From NCBI GenBank assembly GCA_051362555.1, contig CM120642.1, forward strand, positions 10,850,001 to 10,914,000: DNA of 64,000 bases, read 5' to 3'. The position numbers were made by a program, and so were the translations under genes. Below, piece by piece: positions 15,815 through 39,743 of this stretch (positions are counted from its first letter, which is position 1; every line of letters begins with the position of its first letter). Under the pieces are notes generated by a model. The model made no database searches and was not told where the DNA came from. It worked only from the letters and a program-made list of their open reading frames with translations. This stretch comes from Lingula anatina. Taxonomy: Eukaryota > Animalia > Brachiopoda.

Positions 15815-18800
15815 TCACAGTCTTCTTGTCCCATGATTTACGACTCTATCGTAGCCCAGTTTGCTGTCCCAGACTAACTCCCCTCCTATGTATGTAGCCT
15901 AAAATTAATAAAAGATGCATGTTAGGTTACACATATTATGGCACACATAATTCTTTTAGGCAATAGGCTTCAAATTCAATTTTACTTTTCTCCTGTAACT
16001 CGGTCCTCTTCTATACAACTTTAAATATGAAGGCATATGGAGTATTTTATTTGTTATATCAAAACAAATAGTTTTGTGTTTGACAAACAGTTTTTCAAAC
16101 TTAAATATACTGGCTGTAATATACAGTGACATTTAGGGGCATGGCCTTATACTTCAACTTGAATCGAGTTCAAATGTGACCTACAAAAATGCTTTCAGAT
16201 ATATTTTAAACTGAAGGGGTAATAAGTAAATTCTGTTGTACAAAAAGGGAAAACTATCAAAACCAAATAAAAATTGCTTTAATAAAGTATGAAAAAATAT
16301 TCTCAATGCCTTCAAAAAACTATCAAATATATGCACTCATTTTCTGGGGAAATTGGCAAAAGTGAGGGGTGGGTCAACCCACCCAAAAATTTCATTAAAA
16401 TCCTAGTTTAAATCATACCAGTAAGTTCAGGCTGTCGTCAAGCATCACAAAGTCGGCATCAGTGCCATAATCAAGTGAGCCCTTTCTGTCCGTGATCTTC
16501 AGAAGTCTGGCTGGATGTAGAGAGGCAGACTCCAATGCATCCACCATAGTGCACTCTGTAGCTTCATAGAAGTACTTCACACACTGGTTCATAGTGGCTA
16601 TGCTGGAACATGCAGATTTTGGTGATTACTGTATGTCAAAGTGGGTGGGAAGAAACACAGGATGGTAGGAATAATCTCTTTTTGACATTCTGTTAAATTA
16701 TAAATCTAAAAGTCATTTATTTTAAGGCTTTGCTAGAAAAACTAATAAAAGTTTACTCCTTTTCACCAATTTAGTGCTTAATATTTAAACCAAACAATTT
16801 AAGTGTTCCACATATGAAGGGGAATATATGTCAGGATGAGGCTTTAAATGGGGTATTTACGGCTTAGTTATAGGTTTTGAAGTAAGGGTTATATTCAAAG
16901 CATTAGTCACAAAATCAAAGTGAACAAAGTGCAACACTTGTAGCTTTTCCTTAAATTCTGTTACTAGTAAATATTGAGCTTTTCAGGACTACTAAACAAG
17001 CAAAAAAAAAAAAAAAAAAAAAACTTCCGAGATATTATTTTGTTAGTAACCATCAAACAAGTGCCTTAGTCTACAGCAAAACTCAGAAATATATGTCAGG
17101 GTAATAACTCTGATTTGGAAATTCTATCAGTTGCGGCATCTTCTATCAGTTGGAGTCTTTGCCTGATGAATTTACAAAACTGCAGTTGCCACCATGACAT
17201 ATATACATCTGTATACAGACAGTACACACACAAATTTAACTTAAAGAGGAAAACAATACCGCAATGCTAAATAACATAAAACTTGTACTAGGATAGTATG
17301 ACTATGGCAGGGATGTATATTGCAAATCACAAAGCATGCAGGTTATATTTTTCTCAGGCCACTTCAATTCTTGTTCCAAGTATGTCAGACTGTGCCTTCA
17401 GAACTTACAACTATTTTGATGCAATATGCTTATGATTTAAGGCTATGATAGCAAATACTTGCCAAAGAAGTATTTCAATATTTTCTTACTTAGTCCCAAA
17501 AGAAGTGTCAGATTTAGTGGTTGGGCTTACTGATTTCTTGAAAAATGCTTTAACTAACTCTTCATTCAAGAGGATTATTGGTCAAAAAAGCTACCGTAGG
17601 AGTGTCAAATTAGGTCAAGGGTGCCAACATGATGGATATATCTGCTTTTGCTGTGTGCTATAGTCTCTCACCTCCCACACAGTGTATCTGTGCCTGCAAT
17701 GAGAGCTCTTTTATCCTGGATTTCAATCATTTGTGTTCCAGTGCGATGTGTACCACTGGGCAGTCCCATTGCAGCTACAGCATCTGTAACCAACACTGAG
17801 CCTGCAACAGGGAAAGCAGGAACTGAGACAGGGGAAGCAGGGCACCCTATCTTAAAGGAACCCCAGTAGAAAGTTGGTCATAACCTAAAGACCCAAATTT
17901 TTTTTTCTATTTCAACCCAGGATAAAACTGTTGTAGTCCATTGTTATACAGTATTAGTTCTTTTAACTTTTTTTGCAAAACAGGGGCGGTATCTCTAACA
18001 CCCCATTTCTATGGATTTTTAGATCAATCTATCCCTGTGGGGAGTCTCACTAGATTACTGTCAGCTTGGCCGGCTTAAGCATCTATCCCGCCTATTAAAA
18101 GCTGTAAGGGGGTAATTAACTATGGTTACCGCTCGGCTGACTGCAATTTAGCGTGAACCCCCAGGGAGTTAGGTCGATCTAAATCTTAATCTCTAGATCG
18201 ATCTAAATCTCAGGGAAAGCACCCTAAGTGGAATACTACTTCACTTATCTTGGGTCAAAATATTCTAGAGTTTTCGGTCTTTATGTTAAAACCAACTTTC
18301 AAAGTATTTAAGTTCTTTAGTGAAACTTATATATAGGTTCACTCCACTATGATAAATTTTAGCCACATGCTTAACACATTTTTATTTCAAATTGTTTGAA
18401 AATGAAAAACTATTAACTAATTTTTGCCAAAATGTTCACGAGCTCAAAATTTTGAACCCAACACTTACAGGAGCGGATTGAGGATGTCTTCTGGGTCTTC
18501 CAGAAGACGATCAGATTTTCAAGTTTACATTGACGGGTACCTAATTTTTTCTGTCTGAAGACAGTCAAAATAGAGGATGGATCAACAAAGATAATTTGGA
18601 AAACTGTCAGAAAATATCTCTGGATCCGCCTCTGATTTATAATGTAAAAAATTATATCCTGGGGGAGTCAAGGGGGAGAACCAAACCAACTGTGCTACTG
18701 GTGGTGATACCACATAACTGGCAGATATAATAGCAACTCAATAATGGGAACAGTTATTAGTAATACTAGTGTCATCTATTACACCAAATTTAAGCCACAG

Positions 18801-21800
18801 CTGACACATAATGATGTACAACATCATATATTTATATGTTTTAGAAGCAAATAAACTGCACAATTTTCCCAATAAATATATCCTCAAGGAAGTTTTAGGG
18901 CAGTTTGTTTCCTCCCTCAGCAATCTTTTCAAGAACAAATGGCAGATTCATCTCCCACTCCTTACAAAATAGGCAGGAAAGGCACAGAAGAGCACAGAAT
19001 ATCCCATATACATAGCAATGCATCTTTTTAAAAATATTTCTATCACAGCTTGGCAGGGGGTGAACGGTTGGGTGGTGAGGGAGGAAAAAAAATGCCCCCA
19101 CCCCTTTCTGGAAATCCTGATCTGCCTCTGCCCATGGGGATAAGGGGTGGTGTGTAGCACATGAAAAGCATGCATGGGAATTTTGGAATGCAAAACTAAT
19201 GCAAAAACTGAAATAAAATATCTACAGCACACTGAAATACTGGTCTGCATCAATGTTCACAAAAAAGAAAATTGAATTCTGCAAAAACATAAAAGCATAT
19301 GTTAGTAAATTAGTTCTAGCAATGCACAAGCACAAAAGCCAAACCTACGAGTCAACAATACAGTGGAAATGTCAGTACATGATAAGTACCAGTTTTTAGC
19401 TTCATCTCTCAGCAAAAATATCCAATTCAAAAGTAGATTCAACTTTGCGACATGCCACATACTTCACAACATACCTGACTAAGATCAACATATAAGCTAC
19501 TCATCAATTTCCATGGATGACAATTACACAATTACATGCAGTCACCAAACTATTTTTCTCATTCAAAAACATTCAAATTGCCAATTGTGATGCCAAGTTG
19601 TATGCAATGAAATATTTTACCAAACTGGTGAAAAACTGAAATAATATTTTGCTATGGCTGCCAGCAAAGTATATATGCTTGATTATTCTTGCAGGTTGAA
19701 GCTCAAGCGTTTATCTGACAATATCCATGTGAACCTAAGTGAGCAACAAGCAAAGAAATGCTGCTGGCTGCTTCTGATCTGACTACCTCCCACATAGTGT
19801 TTCTGTCCCAGCAATCATTGCCTTTTTATTCCTGATCTCTATGAGTTGTGGACCTATTTGGTGCTGGCCACTGGGGAAACCCATGGCTGCAATTGCATCT
19901 GTTACAAGAACTAAACCTGTAATGTGAATATTGTCATTCTTTATTAGCACTTTATACACCTGGTCCAGCTTGGTCTTAGGTCTCTCAATTGTACTGGGTT
20001 AAAATTAGAACATACATGAATGAGGCAGTTATCTTCAAATTCAGATACAGTAAATACATTGTTTTCTAATTTTCCTTTAAAATAAAAACCTGTCTTATGA
20101 AGTACAAAGCAATAATTTTCTTGTTCATTTTAACTTACTAACATTGGGCCACACCTTGTATTATGACAAGCTCCATCAGTACAATCAATTATGACATGCT
20201 GTCAACAGTCACATTTGGCATACTGCCCCTTTTCAGTTTCACCCAAACTATGCACCTCTGGGGCATGTAACAGTTATGTTGTGAGAAAAGTCACATCCAA
20301 AATACTGCACCTTTGGTGTGTGCCATATTGTGAAATATATCACCCCTACCACATACTAACTGTACCTTTGGCATGTGTCCTGTGAGCTATTCTTTCTGCA
20401 CAGGGGTTAGTATGAATCCCATCAGATATGATACCATAATAAATTATCCTCAAGTCAGGAGGATGCTTATAACTGGCCAATAATCCTACCAGGTGGGGAT
20501 CTCTGTGATGAAACTAAAACATTGAAATTACAATGGCTATAATATATTATTTTTTACTAATTTAAGACAGGAAAGAATTGCACTCTAATTTTATTACATT
20601 CATTAGTATATATCATAATTATACTGTTATCTATTTATAAGTTATATTATCCTCTGACAAACACAAGGTTTTTTTCACTTACAGGCAACATAGCATTGAA
20701 CAAATGAGTAATGAAGGAAGCTCCATGTTTTACAGCCTCCTCTCCTTGAGACAAACTGGCCATGGAGTGACCTGAAATATGATAAACACAACTACAAACT
20801 TATTCAAATCTGGGATATAACACATATACATATCTTAACATAAGATGACATTATGTAATTTATGTCAGTTGACACAGATATAATGTCCTTCTTGACAGGT
20901 GACAGTTCTGCAATTTATTTGGTATAATGGCATCATTGCTCCCTGAAACACCTATAGCTGGAGAGAAATATTTGAATATGGCAGTGATAGTATTTTCTGC
21001 CCTTTTTTCTCTCTTTCTCTCTTCTTCACCAATAAATTCGAAGGTATTTTTAGATGATATGTCCTTCTTGACAGGTGACAGTTCCGCAATTATTTGACAA
21101 AGTGGCACCATTGTTCTCTGAAACACCTTCATATCACATTTTATGTACGTTTTATATTGAATTCAGAATCGGTAATTTATAAATCATAATCAGATCTTCA
21201 AAAATCAACCTTTAGCCATTTTGTTTTACAAAACCCATTCTGTTTGGATGAAATATTGATGACAGACCAGAACTGCAATAAACTGAAAGACACCCACCTA
21301 ATGAAACCACCACTCCTCTATCAACAAATTCTCTGATAACATCAAGGCTCCTTGGGAGCTCTGGAGCTAAGGTAACAATTCTTACTGAACTGATGTCATG
21401 GTACATGTCCAACACATCACTGAAACCATTGTCATAGGTGGCCATGTTCTCCAGCAGATGTGCACCACGTTTTTCTTTACTTATAAAGGGACCTTCTACA
21501 TGAACGCCTGAAACAAAACTGAAAACTTTATTGAAACATGTCATTATTAGCACCCTTGCCTATAGTGATATATATCAAGTAGGGTATCATAATTCACACA
21601 GTGCACTCTTCACAAAGGATGTATCTTTAATGAAATTATTTTCACATTTTTAATGGAGATCCTATCACAATAATTATTCAAAGAGTGTAGCCTTACCTAA
21701 TATCTCTGCTCCATCTCTGCCGCCAGCTTTTATTTTGATTTTTGGCAATACCTACAATAATCAAGTTTTTAAATCAATATATTATTTCTCAAATACACGT

Positions 21801-23250
21801 CTTCCTTTCTACCTTAAAGGCTTAGACTTTAGGGCTAATTTTTTGAGTGTCACAATAAGGCAGCTTAATATATATATATATATCTATGAATGGCCATTGT
21901 CAGACTAATTTTAAATATGCCATGCTTGGAACAGTAATGATATGTAAGATCTGATAAGGGATTTCAGTTGTGATTCAGAAAATGTCTTTCTACAGTGTTT
22001 TGAATGAATAAATAAAACAAAGTGGGCATTTGGGATGAGGGTAATTCACAGGTATATTTAAAATGTGATCAAAATCTTAACACGGAGTATTTAACACCAT
22101 TGCCATTAAGTTACTGTGTCCTTATACATACTTCACAGATAACTGTTTTATTAAATTAATTTATGAAATTAACTATAAAATTAGTTTTCGGGACAATTTT
22201 ATGAAATTGTTACGGCATAGAATAAAGCAGATAAGCAGACTATAAAGCAAATCAGATAATAAGCCTTTTATTGTCACTTCAAAAGTAATCAGGTCTACTC
22301 AATACTAAGTGCAAAACTATTTGCCATCAATTTGGCTCTTTGCTTTTCTATTGACCCCATGATAATTGATAACCATAAGTTTTCAAGATCACTATAGCCT
22401 TCATAAATACATAAAGTAGGACCAAATCAGAAGCTAGTTGGGAAAAGTTTGCCACTGAAACATACACAGAATAATGCAATTTGGCAAAGGCCATGAAATG
22501 CATTTAATTTTTATCCAATTTGTCATCAATGAAAATGACTTAATCTGAGACATTTCTAAATGCACACTGCTGTGGTTAACTGGTATCATCTCACCTTTTT
22601 ATAGACCTCCTTTGAACTGCTGATGATGGTTGGACAAAAGGATGTGCAGCCATGTTGGAGAATCCCTTTGGCTACTTTCTGTACTCCTCCTTCTATGTCA
22701 TCAAAGTTGGAAGAGAAGTCAATGCCAAAACCGCCTGCAGACAAAAGCATACTGTATAACATGACAATATAAACAGCATCAATAACTTCTGTTTATAGCC
22801 AATTTTCTTATTTATTTATTTATTTACTCAATTTCAAGTGTTATCTTAATCCAATTTATCATATTTCAAAATCCAGTAGTTAAAGGTGAGAGGAGTGCAG
22901 TTTTTTTTAAGTAAATTACTTTCCACTGTTTTGTCACTGTGCCTGTGTGTGTGTGCGTGTACTTCTGACTTGGCCTATAATTTTTTTGCAAAGTTAACAT
23001 TTAAAGATACATGTACCAGTATAAACTTACCATTAATTTGGACATCAATGAATCCAGGTGCAATGATGGCATTTTTACAATCAACTTGAAAGTCTGCATA
23101 ACCCTTTTCTACATAAAACAGTTTCTCAGGGTCAATGATCTTTCCATCTCGCACCCACAAATCTTCCACAAATATACTATGATTACGGAGTATTCTGCAG
23201 TTTTTGAACTGGAATATGTGTCCATCTGATACTGTCTTATTCCCCGGCAT
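15815..23250 (-). CDS. AMDHD2: N-acetylglucosamine-6-phosphate deacetylase (NagA/AMDHD2)
   Basis: Exons ~23250-23031, ~22734-22596, ~21751-21697, ~21507-21298, ~20771-20681, ~20514-20366, [19916-19787 or 17801-17672], ~16603-16420, 15898-15815. Motifs [72 protein letters not shown]. Confidence 0.96.
17672..17801 (-). CDS. AMDHD2: AMDHD2 alternative exon 7B (130 nt)
   Basis: ctgttgcag|gctcagtgttggttacagatgct...tgtgggag|gtgaga; encodes [44 protein letters not shown]. Confidence 0.9.
17999..18227. mobile_element. ~230-bp MITE-like interspersed repeat (family A), copy in AMDHD2 intron
   Basis: Near-identical to 31163-31389 (ccccattt...gagtctcactagattactgtcagcttggccggcttaag...gatcgatctaaatctc...gaaagcaccc). 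Confidence 0.9.
18468..18634. mobile_element. ~165-bp MITE-like repeat (family B; CAGGAGCGGAT...ATCCGCCTCTG ends, hAT-like)
   Basis: Imperfect TIRs; a reverse-complement copy is at ~39161-39328. Confidence 0.75.
19787..19916 (-). CDS. AMDHD2: AMDHD2 alternative exon 7A (130 nt)
   Basis: cattacag|gtttagttcttgtaacagatgca...tgtgggag|gtagtc; encodes [44 protein letters not shown]. Confidence 0.9.
20876..21128. repeat. Interspersed repeat with ~75-bp direct repeats; middle part shared with ~41413-41524
   Basis: atgtccttcttgacaggtgacagtt...ctgaaacacct occurs twice. ggagagaaatatttgaatatggcagtgatagtattt...tttagatgatatgtc recurs in a PFAS intron. Confidence 0.8.
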
Positions 23251-23549
23251 TCTGTTCTACAAAATGTCACCACTGTTCATAATGAGGTAGCTGTTCTTTT
23301 GTAGGCAAATATCCTGGTCAATGGTATGTCTCAGAGGTAGGTGTCAATATCTCACTGTTCAGTCAGACTGTACAAAATATAAATGCTTTTGTCAATAGCT
23401 AGTATGTGTAAGAAAAAATCAATCTGACATAAAGACAATTAAGGAACCTTATAACAAAGAGTGTGTGAAAGAGAGCTTGTGGTAACGATTGTTATTATAG
23501 ACAAAAATGAATGCCTTAAGTTCTCAGCAATTAGCACTGAAACAACCAA

Positions 23550-24125
23550 AATAACGTACCGAGGTTCAACTTTCTCAGTTTTCGGTCTGAAGTGCCAGAT
23601 ATTGCGGTAAGTACATAGCATGAAACTTTGAAAGGCCGAAAATGAGGGAAAAAAAGGTTCAACAGCGATATGCATGATTTTGTACTAGTTTGTCGTAAAC
23701 AGTGTTCTTTTTTCTGCCTACATTGCTTACACAAAATATAATGATAAAGTTGAGCCATCTGAACAGTAAAAAAACAAAGATACATTTCAAATAGGGATAA
23801 TACAATCCAATGAATGGAAAAGATATTCTCACCACCATAATCAGCTGACTCCCACCAAAACAATACCACGTGATCTGGAATTTCAATATAAGCTGAACTA
23901 TGAATAGCTTTCTTTTACTTTCAAAAATATCAAGATGGCTCATGGATCCCAGTTGGAAACAAAACATCGAATTGGAAGCATTTCATCAAAATAAATCGTT
24001 GTTTTAAATAATGGTTTCTATTTAACAAACACACACATTTGACAGGTGCCCCGTGAACGGTTACATCGGTCTGTATTCGTTTTCCTTTATTGTAGCTAAG
24101 GTCATGCTGATTTTTTAGTTTACAA
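23550..24125. promoter_or_regulatory. Putative bidirectional promoter AMDHD2/CCDC169
   Basis: Divergent genes with a CpG-containing interval. Probable non-coding AMDHD2 exon donor (minus-strand gtacgt near 23557). YY1-like caagatggc at ~23931 and aaatggcg at the CCDC169 start. Confidence 0.5.
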
Positions 24126-28492: not shown

Positions 28493-30018
28493 ATGTCAAC
28501 AGTGTGTATAGGACAGGGGCCGACAGAAAAAAATATTTTCTGTAAACTCAGTGATCACTACGGAAGATGGGGATTCACTTTTCCCGAGAAGACCAAGAAG
28601 ATGACGCGATTTTTGTACGAATATGTACGAGCGCAAGGTACCTACTGTTGTACAGAAGTCAATGAAAAACGCCTAAATAAAGAAACTCTTTGAAGAGTCT
28701 TATTTGTTCTACCCGTACTAATTAATAATTTGAAAACTGTTAGAAATTGATGCAGTGTTGCAAAATCCTCAATAGAAAACACCGGTGCCCTTGAATAGGC
28801 CAAGGCACTTTTTAGTATTAAAAAGCAAACATCAATAACAGCGCGTAATTTTAGAATAAGATTGAAGACGACTCTACAAAGTTTCCTTGATAGGCCTAAT
28901 ACAAGTGTTCAACACCTTAAATTTATTTTCAAGGTAACTATAAGCGCGTGGTAGAGCGACTGGTAGAAGACGGTCTGGATTACTACGACAAGAGTACTTC
29001 TCTACATCCACACGACAACAATGCTAGGAATGCAATATACATGTCGGCCCATCTATGTGAAAAATTTGACATCCAATCATCGGACCTCTTATATAGGCTT
29101 TTTATGACCATACACAAATTCGAGAAATCATTTGAGAAACTCTTTGTCTTCTTGGATCCGCTGATGAGCTTAGATGACGTGCGATCTTGTACGCTGTATT
29201 CTCAAACTTCTAAAGGTACACTGAACGCGGAGAACTGCATTACCACAGAACGGTTAAACATCTTGGAGTATTTTCTACGACAGGCCAACAGAGTCAAGAT
29301 CTCCATTCCCCGGCCCGACTGGGATACTAGCGCCTTCGTGATACGGCATGACCCCTACGTCCGATGGAGCCACACCCTGTTTGCTGAGTGGCTTGACGAA
29401 AACCTTCGATTGGTTGACATTAACATGCCAGGATCGCGCGGGAAAACGCCTCTAATGCTCGCATGCTGCTCAGAGAGTCCTGAGGCTGTTCTGATGCTAC
29501 TTCGCTACGGCGCCAACCCCATGAAGCCTACGTATCCCCGTCACTTCTGGGGCAACGATAATGTGGACCTCCAGTTTTTGACGGGCGCGGCCTCTTACTG
29601 TTACCCACTTCACACGTTAGTGACAAAACTTAACGCTAACGTGTTTTGGAAGACGCACGCTGAGTTTATGGACCCCGCCATTAGAGAAGAAATTTCTAAG
29701 CGACAGAAAGTAAGAGAAGCCCGTCTGATACGTTGCATCGAGTATTTCGCTCGTGCTCTGCTAAGGCTGTCGGTGAGAGTGATAGAGGCGAGGAATTCGC
29801 GTCATCACACGGCGTCGTACCTGGGCGGGTTCTACCTCCACCCCGTCTACAGTGACGCGTTCCTGCGCTCGCGGACGCATGGGCCGGCCGAGCTCCAACA
29901 TATCTGCCGCTTCTACATAAGACAGAGTTTGCATACCAACTTCCAGCTGCCGCAAGGAATTTACTCGCTGCCCCTGCCGACGCGACTAAAGGAGTATGTG
30001 GATTTATTGAGAGACTGA
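28493..30018 (+). CDS. Ankyrin repeat and SOCS box protein (ASB17-like), 2 exons, ~410 aa
   Basis: Exon 1 28493-28637 (CAAG|gtac) joins exon 2 28934-30018 in frame. Ankyrin repeat INMPGSRGKTPLMLACCSESPEAVLMLLRYGANP; C-terminal SOCS box PAELQHICRFYIRQSL...LPQGIYSLPLPTRLKEYVDL. Confidence 0.88.
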
Positions 30019-30960
30019 ACAGCTTTGGGAACGTTGCGAATGAAAAACATACCAAAGCATTGGGCTAGAATCTATCAAGAATCTGGCATTTCGTCGCGTT
30101 ACGCGTTCCACTGTTATTTCACTGGTTTTCCTCTCAATAGAAGAGTAAAGCTTTCAAAGGTAGGAGGACGAGTTCGAATCTTAGAAACAAATGAGATGCA
30201 GATCTTGATATTTATCAGTTCATCGCGCGAATAAATCTGGACAAAGAAAGCTACAAATATATCTTTCAAAAAACTTACTCAACTACACTTAAAACATCTA
30301 TGCGGTTTATTGTAAGTTTACTTACTGTGAACACATAATTCTCAAAGCCGAGAATTTCTTATAAATGTGACCCATAACAATTATGATGGCAGTTTTTAAT
30401 GTGAAAAATGTTCTTCTCATATTATCATGTTTACAAATAAAATAAAGACAATGCGAGGGAATGTTTGTCACGCACTTTCAAAAATCTTTGAAAAATTGTA
30501 AAATTGGTCGGACTTCAAAGACAGATTTAAACTCAATTCTAATCTAAGTGTTTAGAAAAGTATACAATACAAAAAACAAAATTATGCCCACGTTTGACAT
30601 GTGCATTTCATCAAAATGACCACTTCTTGAATATCATAAAAATATCATAAAAACGGATATAACTGTGTATAACAATAAAAAATACCATTCAGATCTTTTC
30701 ATCCAACAAAGCCTTTCTGGCTTGAGATTCAGTTTTTTTTCTTTGGTATCCAACCAGTGAAAATACAAGTACATGGCACGTAAAACAACATTCAAAGACA
30801 TATTCTTCTGACAAAACTACTGACCAAGCTTTGCACTGGACAAGCTATCCTGTATGGCATATAAAACATAATTTCAATGGTTTGTTAACTATACTTAGAA
30901 CTTTTAAACTCAAATGTCTTTGTCACAAAAGCATCATACTGAAATTGTCCTCAACACATA

Positions 30961-31389
30961 GACTGCATTCCCAGAGATTTAGATCGATCCATCCGGATCG
31001 ACCTAACTCCCTGGGGGTTCACGCTAAATTGCTGTCAGCCGAGCGCACACGACAGTTAATTACCCCCTTACAGCTTTTAGTAGACGGGACAGACATTTAA
31101 GCCGGCTAAGCTGACAGTAATCTAGTGAGACTCCCCACGGGGAATGTGGGAATGGGGTCATACACCCCATTTCCATAGATTTTTAGATCGATCTATCCCT
31201 GTGGAGAGTCTCACTAGATTACTGTCAGCTTGGCCGGCTTAAGTGTCTGTCCCGTCTACTAAAAGCTGTAAGGGGGTAATTAACTATGGTGCCTGCTCGG
31301 CTGACTGCAATTTAGCGTGAACCCCCAGGGAGTTAGGTCGATCTAAAACTTAATCTTTAGATCGATCTAAATCTCTAGGAAAGCACCCA
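30961..31389. mobile_element. Two family-A MITE copies in inverted orientation, directly adjacent
   Basis: 30961-31159 is the reverse complement of 31163-31389 (e.g. gctgacagtaatctagtgagactc / gagtctcactagattactgtcagc; agagatttagatcgatc / gatcgatctaaatctct). Confidence 0.92.
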
Positions 31390-31423
31390 TAGTTAAGTAC
31401 TATTTCCCCAAAATGAGACCTAG

Positions 31424-34400: not shown

Positions 34401-37400
34401 GGTCAGCAGGTGGCCTGGAAGCAGAGTGTAACATGGGCCAGTCGACAATACATACAAGTGTTATGTCTGTCAAAGCAAAATTACTCATTTTTATTTATTA
34501 ACTTGAGCAGCATTTTAGATAAACAGCTCAAGCAAGTTTCAGCTTATACCAAATAACCATTTGGATGGCACAGTGTTCACAAGGCCAAAATTATTTTTAA
34601 AAAACACAAAGAGACAAAAAAATCATTTTAAAAAAATTAAAAAAGAAACAAATTATCAGCCCATGCTTGTTGAACTTGACATGCAAATGGGATCATTAAT
34701 ATAATGGTAACAAAAACATGCACAGCTCTGGCATTGCAGACAAGGCTCAGTTGACAGACATACGTACAGATAAAAATATTTCTTTAAACAGAAATTAAAA
34801 AACTGCAAACTAAATCTTCAGTAAGATACCAAGGCTGCACTTAGTTCCATCCTACCTCTGATAAGCTGCTGTGTTATGTTAAAGGCTTGTGAGAACTGCT
34901 CTGGTTTGTCCAAGTCTGGTGACCTGTCTCCTATCTGTTTATAACACTGGGCTAGGGCACTGCCTCCCAATCTGTGGTGTCCACTACCCATCTCAACATA
35001 TAGGATAACACCTAAAATATACAGAACATAGCAAATGCAACTGTCTTTAACAAATATGCAAAAGAAAAACCAAATGACACCTTATCATCAATGTCCAAAT
35101 TAACATATCAATGTAGAATGGTAAGAAATAGCATGAATACAAACAAAGCCTTAGCTTTCAAATATTTTATATGTTTGAGTATTAAAAACATGTTTTCCCA
35201 GGCTCTTCTAAAGTGTCTCCAAAAACACTTCAAAGCTGTCAAGTCATTCAAAGTAGACATTCCATCAATCTTTCTATTTAGTGTGCTACCTTTTCCTCCT
35301 GGGCACTTCAGATCTGGAGTGACAGTGGCCGAGATGTCTGGACAGCCCACATAGGTTGACACCACCAGGGAACCTGACCAACAGAGAAAAAATGTCTACC
35401 ATACTGACTGTCAAAGGCCATTTTCTCAGCATGAGATGCATATTTTATACTATTCATATATAATTAAAAACTATAATAAACAATTTAGCAGGATTCAGTT
35501 TTTCATAATTCTAATGAGTTTAGCTAGCAAGAGATGTATAAGAATATCAGCCACATGTAGCAAAATTGCATCAAACTGCATATAAGCACTCCATACAAGA
35601 TTGAATGTCACTCGGACTTTAATTATACCACTTGACTTTCTAAATAGCCTACCTGGTGCTTTAACAGTATCTTCCTGCACCCTTGCAGCCATACTGAGTG
35701 AGTCTTTTCCTCCATCCACAGCCACACCCAGTTGCTGCATGACATCACACATAGCTTGGCACGCATCAAACAGTCGGACTCCTTCCCCAGGTAACTTTGC
35801 AGCCCACATCCAGTTTCCACTGCATTTCACATCCTGATGAGTGAGAAGGGTCAATCAAATACATATTTCTTAAATCTTTTGTCAGTTTTATTAAGTGCAC
35901 ACTTTCTTAGAATCCAAACTGAAAAGATACATGTAAAAGTATGTTTTACCTTCAGATCTGTGACTAGAGCAAATACTAAGTTTGTCAGTGCCTCTCCAAC
36001 TGACATCCTAGCTCCACATTTGGGGTCCACCAGTCCTTTGATTGGCTGTTCTCCAATAGCAGTGGCTCCACCAACCTTAAAAGTTAAAATATGGTGTATT
36101 TAGTACAATATCCTTCAAAAACAAAGAAAAAACTGTATAACAATTTAGGTGGATCTTCATGTACTTAACATAAACTATAAGTGACAATGATGATACCTTG
36201 TCAAAATGAGACAGTGCTGTGACGGCCACATCTGCCAGTGGAGTATGAAGTGGACCAACACACTGTTGTTGGGCAACCAGACCTGTCACTGAACGATCAA
36301 CCTAAAACCAAGACAAGAACAAGAGTGGTTAGCGAGCTGTGGTACCCCTCAATTCAAACAAGGAATTTCTGTGAGCAATTTGCAATTTTTTTTCACATCA
36401 TTTTAACTATATTTATAGAAAGTGCCAACTGTGTCATTTGTTACCCACTTTGTTAGTTAGGTATCTCTTGCTGGCCACAGCAGGAAGTCTAAGCACCCTG
36501 TGCAAGGCTTCCATTACTTGTAAGTTATCAGGCAGCTCCAGGGACTCAAGGATGGAGGGAATCCTGGTCAGCTTAAATACCTACAACATTTCCAATAATA
36601 TATCATTTGGTGCTTCCCAACTTTTATCAGTGATTCAAATGCAGTATTTAATAATGTTTCACATTTTCATCAACACAATTTATGTTTAGGGAACAGATGC
36701 ACTATAAGTTAAACCACATGCTCAATGATGCTTATCAATATGTGATGTAATTTCAGGTAAGCCATATTTTAATCTTATTAATTCAAAAACCAGCCTTCAT
36801 ATGTCTGTTATCAATGGTGCCATGATTACCTTCCTTGGCATAGACCCCAGCACATGTTTGAGTTCCAAGTCTACTGGGTACAGACTGTGGTGGTCAGGAC
36901 AGCTCCTTTTAATGTCTGGCTCATCAGACTTGGTGGAATGGGAAAAATTTTCAAGCTTGATCTAAAACATTTGACGGTAAAGTATATTAAGAATATATTT
37001 AATCGGTAAAATTTGTTTATAATGCCAAAATAGATAACACCTACAGAATAAAGAAATTGTGCCTGAAAAGTGAAAAAAAAATCAAATTCTAAAATATACC
37101 ACCAATCTGAAAAAAAAAAACTGCCACTCTTTAATTCTTGGAGATAAAACAAATAACTTTTTGGTATACCACAAAAGGCCACTATGTACACTATGTACAC
37201 TGTGGACACTATGTACTCTGACATGTATCTTTAGTATGAAAGTTTATTTGTAGGATGTCAGAATGAAAGCAGAATGTCCAGTCCTCCTTACCACCCCATC
37301 TCCAGTCACAGTGCCCACAAAGGACACGTCACACTTCTCCCTGCGTCCAATTCTGGCCAGCAGCTCCTTGTCCGTTTCTCGTATCAGAAGGGCGTTGGAT

Positions 37401-39743
37401 TCCTGGTATTCGGCTCCCCACAGCTCCATGATGCTAATAGTGGGATCACCCAGTTTGAAGTCATCTGCTCTGATAATGGCTCCAGCTGGGTCTACTATTT
37501 CTTTCAACACATTACCTTACAAATTAAAGAAAAAATAATTTAAATGACATTTGTTAAGAACTTTCTATCATACTGTAGAGTTTGAAGGTGGTTAATTTTT
37601 TTTTAACTTTACAGTAAAATTTTAGCAATGCAGCAATAAAAGTCTAAAAAATTTCCTCTTTCTAGAGAAAACATTGTGGATACACTTACTTTTACATACT
37701 CCTAACACTTACCATTTCCCCCTGCTCCCTGGTCATGTATACTTCTTATGGGATTCTCCGTGCTTCGTTCTATACATGCCCGTATGACCCTATTGACTTT
37801 CTGTTCCATCTCTGCATCCCCTCTTTGCACAGCACCAAAGTCCAACTCGGATGTGTTGTCACCCTGGACTTGTATGGATGAGGCTGCCCCACCTCCAACA
37901 CCAATACGATACACAGGCCCTCCAACCTTAACAACCTCCATGCCTAGAAATCAATTAATTTTTTTTTACTCTTGAAAAATGGAAACAATATCAAATTCAA
38001 CATTTAATGGTTATAATTTATAAATCTTGACATTTTAAAGTAATAAAAACAGAATGACATGAAGAGATGTATTTACTTTATGATTTGCTTAAAATTATGA
38101 ATGAAACTAAACTTTATACAGTTTATCAGGGTGTTCGCAAACATCTTATTTCAAATCATTTATATGATTCAATAAATTTATCACTGGGGTTCATGTACCA
38201 GGTTTTGCCTCCTCCTTGCTGACATGTATGTGATCCAGACTACCCAATCCTCCACTGAACATGACAGGTTTAATCCACTCCCGTCTCTCACCACCTGGCA
38301 ACATCAGTCCACAGGACCTGGCAAACCCAGCCAGCAGCGGCTCGCCAAACTTGTTCCCATAGTCTGAGGCCCCATTGCTAGCCTCTATGGCAATATGTAA
38401 TGGCTTGGCAAAGTTATTTGGATAGGTGAAGGAGTCATCCTCCCAGGGCTGGGAATAACCTGGGCAAATGATACATATAAAAAAATTAAAATAATTGTAA
38501 CATTACATGTTTCAAAACTGTAGCTTTTGCTATTTTACAGTGTGCAATTATCATCTGTTTACATAACTATATGTAGTAGACTGATAAAAATTCACAAAGG
38601 CAAAACTAAATTTAGAATTTTTTTACTTTTTTATCCACCGAAATTTATGATAATTTTTTTTGTATGTTTACTGCTTAATCCTTATAAATTATCAAAGGTG
38701 TAGACCTGAATATATCTGATATTTTCAGGACTGTATACCATACAATATTTTTTTCATATCTATATCATCTTTCACTCACCTGGTATTCTGAGGTTCCCAA
38801 AGCAGTAACCAGCTGTGCCAGCCACTACATGAGCACCTGTTCCAGTGCTGTGCACGTCCCGGATTCTGCCTCCTGTGCCTGTTGTAGCACCAGGAAAAGG
38901 AGCCACACCTGATGCAAATAAGAAGATATATGTATATGGTTCATATCTTAATAATTATAAATTGCAAGCAGATTTTGTCCTTTGATTACACGTTTTAACA
39001 AGGCAGCAAAGCTGTCAAATGTACAGACAAAAAACAGGAAAAAAAAGATGCAAAATAGGTCAATTTGTCAATTTTTGATGCAATAATAAATAATGCTTAT
39101 AATAGCACAGTCTGTCAACAGTGATTTTTAATCATGCACAACAGGTAACATGGTCAATAACAGGAGCAGATCCAGAGATATTTTCTGACAGTATTCCAAA
39201 GTATCTATGTTGATCCATCCTCCATTTTGATGGTCTTCCAACAGAAAAAAAAATAGATACCAGTCAATATAAACTTAATAACCTGACTGTCTTCCGGAAG
39301 ACCCAGAAGATGGTCTCAATCCCCCTTCAATAAGATTACAGTTTCAGAACCATGAAAGACCAAAGTCACATGATGAAAGTCTCAATATTTGAAAAATGAT
39401 GACAGTGCATAAAATAATATAACATAATGTTTAAAGACATAAAAAACAATACAACTGCTTATGTGGAAATACAGAAAATGAGCAGAGCCTCAGGTGGATG
39501 GAAGTTATAAGTCACAAATGCCAGTGTTTGAGAAAAAAATTAACAAGGCAGCAATTGTTGATTATTATTGATTATTGTCCTCTTTGGCCCACTTCTGACA
39601 GTTCCTGAAAATTTCAGCAAAATCGGTCCATAACTTTTTGAGTTATGTTGATGACAGACAAACAGGGGTGAAAATATAACCTCCTTGGCAGAGGTAAATA
39701 TAATTCCAATGAAGCTGCTATTCAAACTTTTAATCTTTGAGTT

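Follow-up and report, generated by a model that had tools for sequence, protein, structure and literature searches.

The kinetics of KHK-A and KHK-C are tuned by a switch between duplicated exons, and CRMP and NagA share the amidohydrolase superfamily. Against this background, we consider a gene of the brachiopod Lingula anatina: in a stretch of 64,000 nucleotides (nt) from contig CM120642.1 of assembly GCA_051362555.1 (positions 10,850,001 to 10,914,000 of the forward strand; hereafter, the window), a nine-exon AMDHD2/NagA gene runs on the minus strand from 23250 to 15815 and carries two copies of its seventh exon, 7A and 7B, which are very probably used as alternatives. Several parallels are offered by described systems. 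In the available text on Drosophila CRMP/dihydropyrimidinase, an exon swap likewise falls at the active site of a metal-dependent hydrolase, but it exchanges a zinc-binding His for Gly (10.1101/292813, PMC7954323), whereas the pair in Lingula AMDHD2 alters no metal or catalytic residue. PKM1/PKM2, as far as covered in 10.1101/292813, is a metabolic enzyme tuned by a duplicated-exon switch, as is predicted for Lingula AMDHD2; however, the PKM switch alters allostery and tetramer contacts, whereas in Lingula a predicted active-site lid is swapped and the dimer residues (242, 243, and 280 in human numbering) lie in the constant exon 6. KHK-A/C, which appears in the supplement of PMC9741552, is a further metabolic enzyme with such a switch.

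As a class, tandemly duplicated or homologous mutually exclusive exons are described in the available parts of PMC9741552, PMC5740500, and PMC7954323 as having equal lengths, retained functional residues, and variable residues near the functional site, and the Lingula pair shares these features; its exon length is no multiple of three, a property found in 60% of the human clusters. It also fits the general pattern given in PMC9741552, in which functional residues are kept and changes are conservative. The closest characterized protein, human AMDHD2 (PDB codes 7NUT/7NUU; available text of PMC8970586), is about 58% identical, aligns with a TM score of 0.90, and has the same zinc ligands, D294, and dimer and phosphate residues. 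It differs in that no duplicated exon has been reported for it, with no match in one supplement of PMC9741552 (which may not hold all 236 events) or in the main text of PMC7954323. The fly AMDHD2 gene is credited with three isoforms and a pigmentation phenotype in the accessible part of PMC13261557. Thus, the class of event is well known and both Lingula forms are already present in the automatic RefSeq annotation, but the pair in AMDHD2, and in a brachiopod, adds a new gene and phylum to the class as far as was searched; that it is so far seen in one species limits its weight. An earlier note on this DNA, made from its letters, knew of no such pair described in AMDHD2, and a literature search with subscription journals and bioRxiv supplements outside its scope likewise found no published account. 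The gene is laid out as follows, in window coordinates.

About 23368-23832, minus strand: intron of the 5' untranslated region (UTR) upstream of exon 1, 465 nt, seen in 5 RNA reads from two of the four runs used
23031..23250, minus strand: coding exon 1, from the ATG
22595..22734, minus strand: exon 2
21697..21751, minus strand: exon 3
21298..21507, minus strand: exon 4, with zinc ligand E143 and with A154
20683..20771, minus strand: exon 5, with zinc ligands H210 and H231 and phosphate contacts N234 and A235
20366..20513, minus strand: exon 6, with H241, R242, H272, and dimer residue I280; its donor is common to both copies of exon 7
19787..19916, minus strand: alternative exon 7A, 130 nt, residues 289-330 (barrel strand 8, D294, three-strand lid, and L328)
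17802..19786, minus strand: intron separating 7A and 7B, 1985 nt, with two interspersed repeats
17672..17801, minus strand: alternative exon 7B, 130 nt, phases as in 7A, with S289 and T308
16419..16602, minus strand: exon 8, with an acceptor common to 7A and 7B
15815..15898, minus strand: coding part of exon 9 through the stop codon; 3' UTR reads reach at least 15300

The gene belongs to Lingula anatina: a RefSeq protein of this species matches the exon-4 peptide at 100% identity. Both isoforms possess the zinc ligands E143, H210, and H231 and the catalytic D294, corresponding to human E143, H211, H232, and D294 in the available text of PMC8970586, along with A154, N234, A235, H241, R242, H272, and I280, which match the human sugar, phosphate, and dimer residues A154, N235, A236, H242, R243, H272, and I280. 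By its residues and predicted fold, the product is an NagA/AMDHD2-type deacetylase, for which deacetylation of N-acetylglucosamine 6-phosphate (GlcNAc-6-P) is predicted. The repeats in the intron between 7A and 7B lie at about 17998-18242 and about 18475-18634, with further copies at 30955-31406 and 39166-39322; the first has inverted arms (18018-18065 and 18136-18183), like a small transposon. Both are deeply covered by RNA reads from both strands, which continue into unrelated sequence.

The earlier note had placed two 130-nt exons at 19916-19787 and 17801-17672, and both are confirmed there on the minus strand: each is preceded by AG and followed by GT, is entered in phase 1 (862 coding nt lie upstream), and is left in phase 2. 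Joined to its neighbors with either copy, the message encodes an open protein of 419 amino acids (aa). With both copies included, codon 357 becomes a stop, which lies 235 nt above the last junction, and with exon 7 skipped altogether, codon 289 does, at a distance of 179 nt from that junction, so that, as had been claimed, each copy fits the flanking exons in frame, whereas both or neither would shift it. By the 50-55-nt rule, the both-exon and no-exon messages would be targets of decay.

The window alleles of 7A and 7B are identical at 89 of 130 nt and in the residues of 29 of the 42 whole codons, and the similarity in DNA ends at the splice sites. Differences fall at 9 first, 6 second, and 25 third codon positions of 42; the proportion of differing synonymous sites (pS) is 0.75 against 0.18 for nonsynonymous sites (pN; Fisher p 2e-8, a pairwise value only, with synonymous sites saturated). 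The ratio of the corresponding divergences (dN/dS) is near 0.05 but, since dS is saturated, only a value well below 1 is safe. Exon 7B matches the 7A isoform at an E value of 1e-14 in a tblastn search within the window, which detected no second copy of any other AMDHD2 exon. Further, among 20,000 neutral simulations at a divergence of 1.0, 0.8% retained an open frame with the splice sites at either end, and an identity of 29 of 42 residues was never attained. Taken together, the match, the lack of other copied exons, and the failure of the neutral simulations exclude a chance resemblance. Both copies are under purifying selection, and the constraint noticed earlier is thereby borne out.

RNA evidence came from four of nine runs identified by species label (X1, X4, X7, and X2), using about 6% of each and 25% of X7; a splice joint was listed if at least 3 reads supported it in one run. 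Every constitutive junction of the model is seen. The 7B-8 junction has 8, 0, 3, and 7 reads in runs X1, X4, X7, and X2, respectively (18 in total, in three of the four runs), and the 7A-8 junction has 1, 8, 1, and 0 (10 in total, also in three of four), so that exon 8 is entered from 7B in 18 of 28 reads and from 7A in 10 of 28. The 6-7A junction has 1, 10, 2, and 0 reads (13 in total). These reads show that both copies are joined to exon 8, in proportions that differ by sample, and that 7A-8 bypasses 7B; the junction-read check proposed with the earlier note thus finds both copies in spliced reads. Neither a 7A-7B nor a 6-8 joint is listed in the four runs at the 3-read threshold. Of the features by which homologous mutually exclusive exons are recognized in the available text of PMC5740500, those present here are like length, frame, and phases, 7A-8 reads bridging 7B, purifying selection, and a 7A-7B joining that shifts the frame. 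We put the probability that 7A and 7B are a mutually exclusive pair at about 0.9.

Several observations weigh against this reading or limit it. No 6-7B joint is listed in the four runs (fewer than 3 reads in each), although by a rough estimate the chance of its falling under 3 reads in all four is about 0.09, and reads across upstream junctions are few in the 7B-rich runs. A second scaffold has a RefSeq model, XP_013392267.1, that includes both copies, 7A spliced to 7B, and ends at the early stop predicted for such a message. The 7A:7B ratio of 1:15 in study P1 versus 8:0 in study P2 (p 1e-5 on reads) favors sample-dependent use of the copies, but the contrast confounds study, tissue, and individual, P2 being a single run. 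Most reads are only 95 to 99% like the window, and allele divergence may lose reads at the 95% cut. Finally, depth over the exon bodies in run X1 is 5 for 7A and 9 for 7B, milder than the 1:8 ratio of its junction reads. Of the apparent exclusivity described in the earlier note, then, the bypassing of 7B and the lack of a listed 7A-7B joint stand, while the 6-7B joint is absent from the listed reads and the model on the second scaffold runs counter to it.

One could suppose from the same counts that 7B occurs mainly in short messages starting inside the repeat-rich 7A-7B intron rather than in full-length mRNA: the 18 7B-8 reads have no listed 6-7B counterpart, the runs rich in 7B have little coverage above exon 7, and the intronic repeats are heavily covered. 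We regard this as very improbable. The 6-7B junction is found in two RefSeq models, XP_013388887.1 and XP_013392271.1, and the 7B acceptor is the most pyrimidine-rich of the gene (0.75). The 5' half of 7B, with its Asp motif, is conserved, upstream junctions are sparse in those runs generally, and the reads over the repeats continue into unrelated sequence.

In RefSeq, the 7A form is isoform X1 (XP_013388886.1) and the 7B form is isoform X2 (XP_013388887.1); both are 419 aa and differ only at exon 7. They differ from the window forms by one or two residues, so that the window represents another allele or assembly. The second scaffold, of 72 kb, holds near-identical RefSeq AMDHD2 models (P0125 and P0126; 4 differences in 356 aa) without exons 8 and 9; besides the model that joins 7A to 7B, the other reads through the 7B donor. 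The heterozygosity of the Lingula genome is given as 1.6% in the available text of PMC4595640, and this scaffold is probably the other haplotype; paralogues elsewhere were judged from RefSeq proteins only. Among the best-supported variants listed, a silent change in 7B at 17682 is carried by 9 of 9 reads in run X1 and 10 of 10 in run X2. A K-to-R polymorphism in 7A is found at 19823, where the R allele is that of RefSeq and agrees with 7B.

How exclusion might be enforced is suggested by the splice sites themselves. Exon 7A has the poorest pyrimidine tract in the gene (0.45) and a donor scoring 5/9, and 7B has the richest (0.75) and a donor scoring 6/9. Regulated competition between weak 7A sites and stronger 7B sites would keep the output at one of two, with nonsense-mediated decay as a backstop clearing the two-exon and no-exon messages; such competition with decay is the simplest account and a likely one. 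Two other mechanisms were rejected. Steric interference requires that the upstream donor and the branch point lie no more than about 50 nt apart, and here the intron is 1985 nt with an AG-free zone of only 19 nt before 7B; incompatibility of U2 and U12 sites requires U12-type sites around one of the exons, and all nine donors are of ordinary GT types. The region of the 7A acceptor has an inverted match 150 nt above 7B that would form 18 of 21 pairs, no better than shuffled sequence (p 0.16). Among 26 site-intron pairs, each compared with 60 shuffles, the best docking-site pairing was that of a control site (p 0.016), the 7A donor gave 0.033, and none survives 26 tests.

The duplicated unit is an old exon copied whole, because its counterpart, likewise 130 nt long and of identical phases, occurs as a single copy in two intron-containing contigs (L001 and L003). 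A metagenome scan gave at least 16 loci; among those listed, two contain introns and have one copy of the exon, the others being intronless. Patella vulgata isoform X2 (P0128, 327 aa) has an R after the exon-7 segment, as expected of read-through at the same donor; from this R, the intron position seems common to molluscs. The two Lingula peptides are identical at 32 of 44 positions, and they are about as far from a bivalve orthologue (34 and 32 of 44) as from each other. In a 44-column tree of 107 segments, 7A, 7B, and P0138 group weakly (83/81), a grouping too weak for dating, with similar branch lengths for 7A and 7B (0.16 and 0.24). P0138 is the closest non-Lingula relative found (68%); if it comes from a near relative, it may help in dating. 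From these comparisons, the duplication is likely old and on the brachiopod line, at an undated point.

The pair was seen in no other animal, among matches that include no named brachiopod besides Lingula, and this lack of a second species counts against the main reading. No alternative exon-7 forms occur within the isoform sets of Patella, Saccostrea, and sharks, protein sets that would miss an unannotated second exon; clusters of Tubulanus, Haliotis, Fundulus, and others fell outside this comparison. When longer proteins were searched for the 7B peptide, the Lingula cluster alone was picked out (1 of 76 candidates), which is weak evidence. Of 252 proteins longer than 100 aa, 223 gave a match to the 7A peptide; one, from Timema (P0140), had two copies. 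It was rejected as a second species with the pair since its copies are identical and likely an assembly or annotation artifact. Corvus P0218 similarly has identical internal repeats, probably of the same origin.

The exchange is better described as a swap of the predicted active-site lid than as a swap of the catalytic-Asp loop, the description given earlier. Structure prediction gives the two forms one and the same fold (pLDDT 90, pTM 0.91), a barrel with a three-strand insertion and a beta-sandwich domain; the 7B model, the one searched with Foldseek, has 7NUT/7NUU as its top matches and a TM score of 0.90 to human AMDHD2. In both models, exon 7 supplies a strand at 289-291, D294, strands at 304-308, 311-316, and 319-322, and then 328-330, and it aligns without gaps to human residues 289-330. 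The available text of PMC8970586 identifies D294 as the catalytic base (D294A is inactive), in agreement with the catalytic role assigned earlier to the Asp of the TDA motif, and proposes the three-strand insertion, which has the highest B-factors in one monomer, as an active-site lid. In Mycobacterium smegmatis NagA, the lid is given as Met274-Ser304, and the Ile301 backbone binds the sugar C4 hydroxyl, telling N-acetylglucosamine (GlcNAc) from N-acetylgalactosamine (GalNAc) (available text of PMC6016474). By ungapped alignment, this lid maps to Lingula 301-331 and Ile301 to L328; hence, the end of exon 7 coincides with the end of the lid.

The RefSeq forms differ at 12 residues, 10 of which are in the lid, whereas the catalytic Asp and its neighbors are identical. 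The residues that the available text of PMC8970586 and PMC6016474 names for metal binding, catalysis, sugar or phosphate contact, or dimerization are untouched by these differences. The differing columns are the more variable ones among homologues (entropy of 1.46 versus 0.72 bits, p 0.006), with three exceptions. In a vertebrate-rich set of 105 distinct exon-7 segments, from the 210 of 217 full-length proteins with the segment, S289 and T308 of 7B, and F301 of 7A, each occur in 0 of the 105; all 105 have L, I, F, V, or M at position 308, and 7B is thus polar at two otherwise hydrophobic sites. All invariant residues are retained in 7B. The predicted structures of the two forms are indistinguishable and so lend no support to a functional difference.

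With the catalytic Asp and the sugar contacts identical and the differences concentrated in the lid, a kinetic change is likelier than a switch between GlcNAc and GalNAc. We propose that, through exon choice, the gene makes two active deacetylases whose catalytic residues agree and whose predicted lids differ, and that the differing lids would affect Km, kcat, or stability and, with them, the rate at which GlcNAc-6-P is withdrawn from the supply of UDP-GlcNAc. On the residue comparison, such kinetic tuning through the lid is probably the function of the pair. The substrate-specificity switch suggested in the earlier note is not supported. It would extend the range to GalNAc-6-P or to N-glycolyl or sulfate analogues, and the exon does cover the active site and the contact with the C4 hydroxyl, with lid residues that could act indirectly; however, residues 327-331, L328 included, are identical in both forms, the contact is through the backbone, and human AMDHD2 is inactive on GalNAc-6-P and GlcNAc-6-S in the available text of PMC8970586. 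We consider a change of range improbable.

A stronger competitor to kinetic tuning, though clearly less probable than it, is that the copies are functionally equivalent and kept by regulatory subfunctionalization across tissues or stages, their differences being tolerated drift. Most differences do lie at columns that vary freely among animals, the 32/44 identity of the copies resembles that of each to the bivalve orthologue (34 and 32 of 44), the predicted folds are the same, and purifying selection on both copies would be expected here too; the two nonconservative changes of 7B at otherwise hydrophobic sites speak against it. Another reading, doubtful in our view and overlapping that of kinetic tuning, takes 7B as a derived low-activity or regulatory form, its barrel strand and lid made looser by S289 and T308, so that use of 7B would lower recycling and raise UDP-GlcNAc. 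The rarity of both residues (0 of 105 segments, with 308 always L, I, F, V, or M) and the status of 7B as the main form in study P1 would suit it, as would the rise of UDP-GlcNAc upon AMDHD2 loss in mouse stem cells (available text of PMC8970586). Yet 7B retains all invariant residues, 7A too has a unique residue (F301), model confidence equals that of 7A, and the two branches are of similar length (0.16 and 0.24).

Kinetic tuning through the lid would matter at several levels. AMDHD2 is presented in the available text of PMC8970586 as a recently recognized control point of UDP-GlcNAc supply, and the role of the lid has been proposed from crystal mobility (available text of PMC8970586 and PMC6016474); two selected natural versions of the lid make that role directly testable. 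Lingula has a chitinous shell and 31 chitin synthase genes (available text of PMC4595640), which makes splicing control of the chitin precursor pool plausible, and the isoform switch may tune the recycling rate of this precursor. More speculatively, and in our estimate rather unlikely, the pair could be a PKM-like hexosamine switch, in which 7B, with a lid loosened by S289 and T308 and much lower recycling, would leave more UDP-GlcNAc for making chitin in the shell, chaetae, or gut, with 7A as the housekeeping form; if so, 7A and 7B would constitute a natural lid-swap experiment for the NagA family.

Elsewhere in the window, a 365-codon open frame lies on the plus strand at 28921-30015, and an exon at 35498-35854 on the minus strand bears a putative resemblance to FGAM synthase (PFAS).

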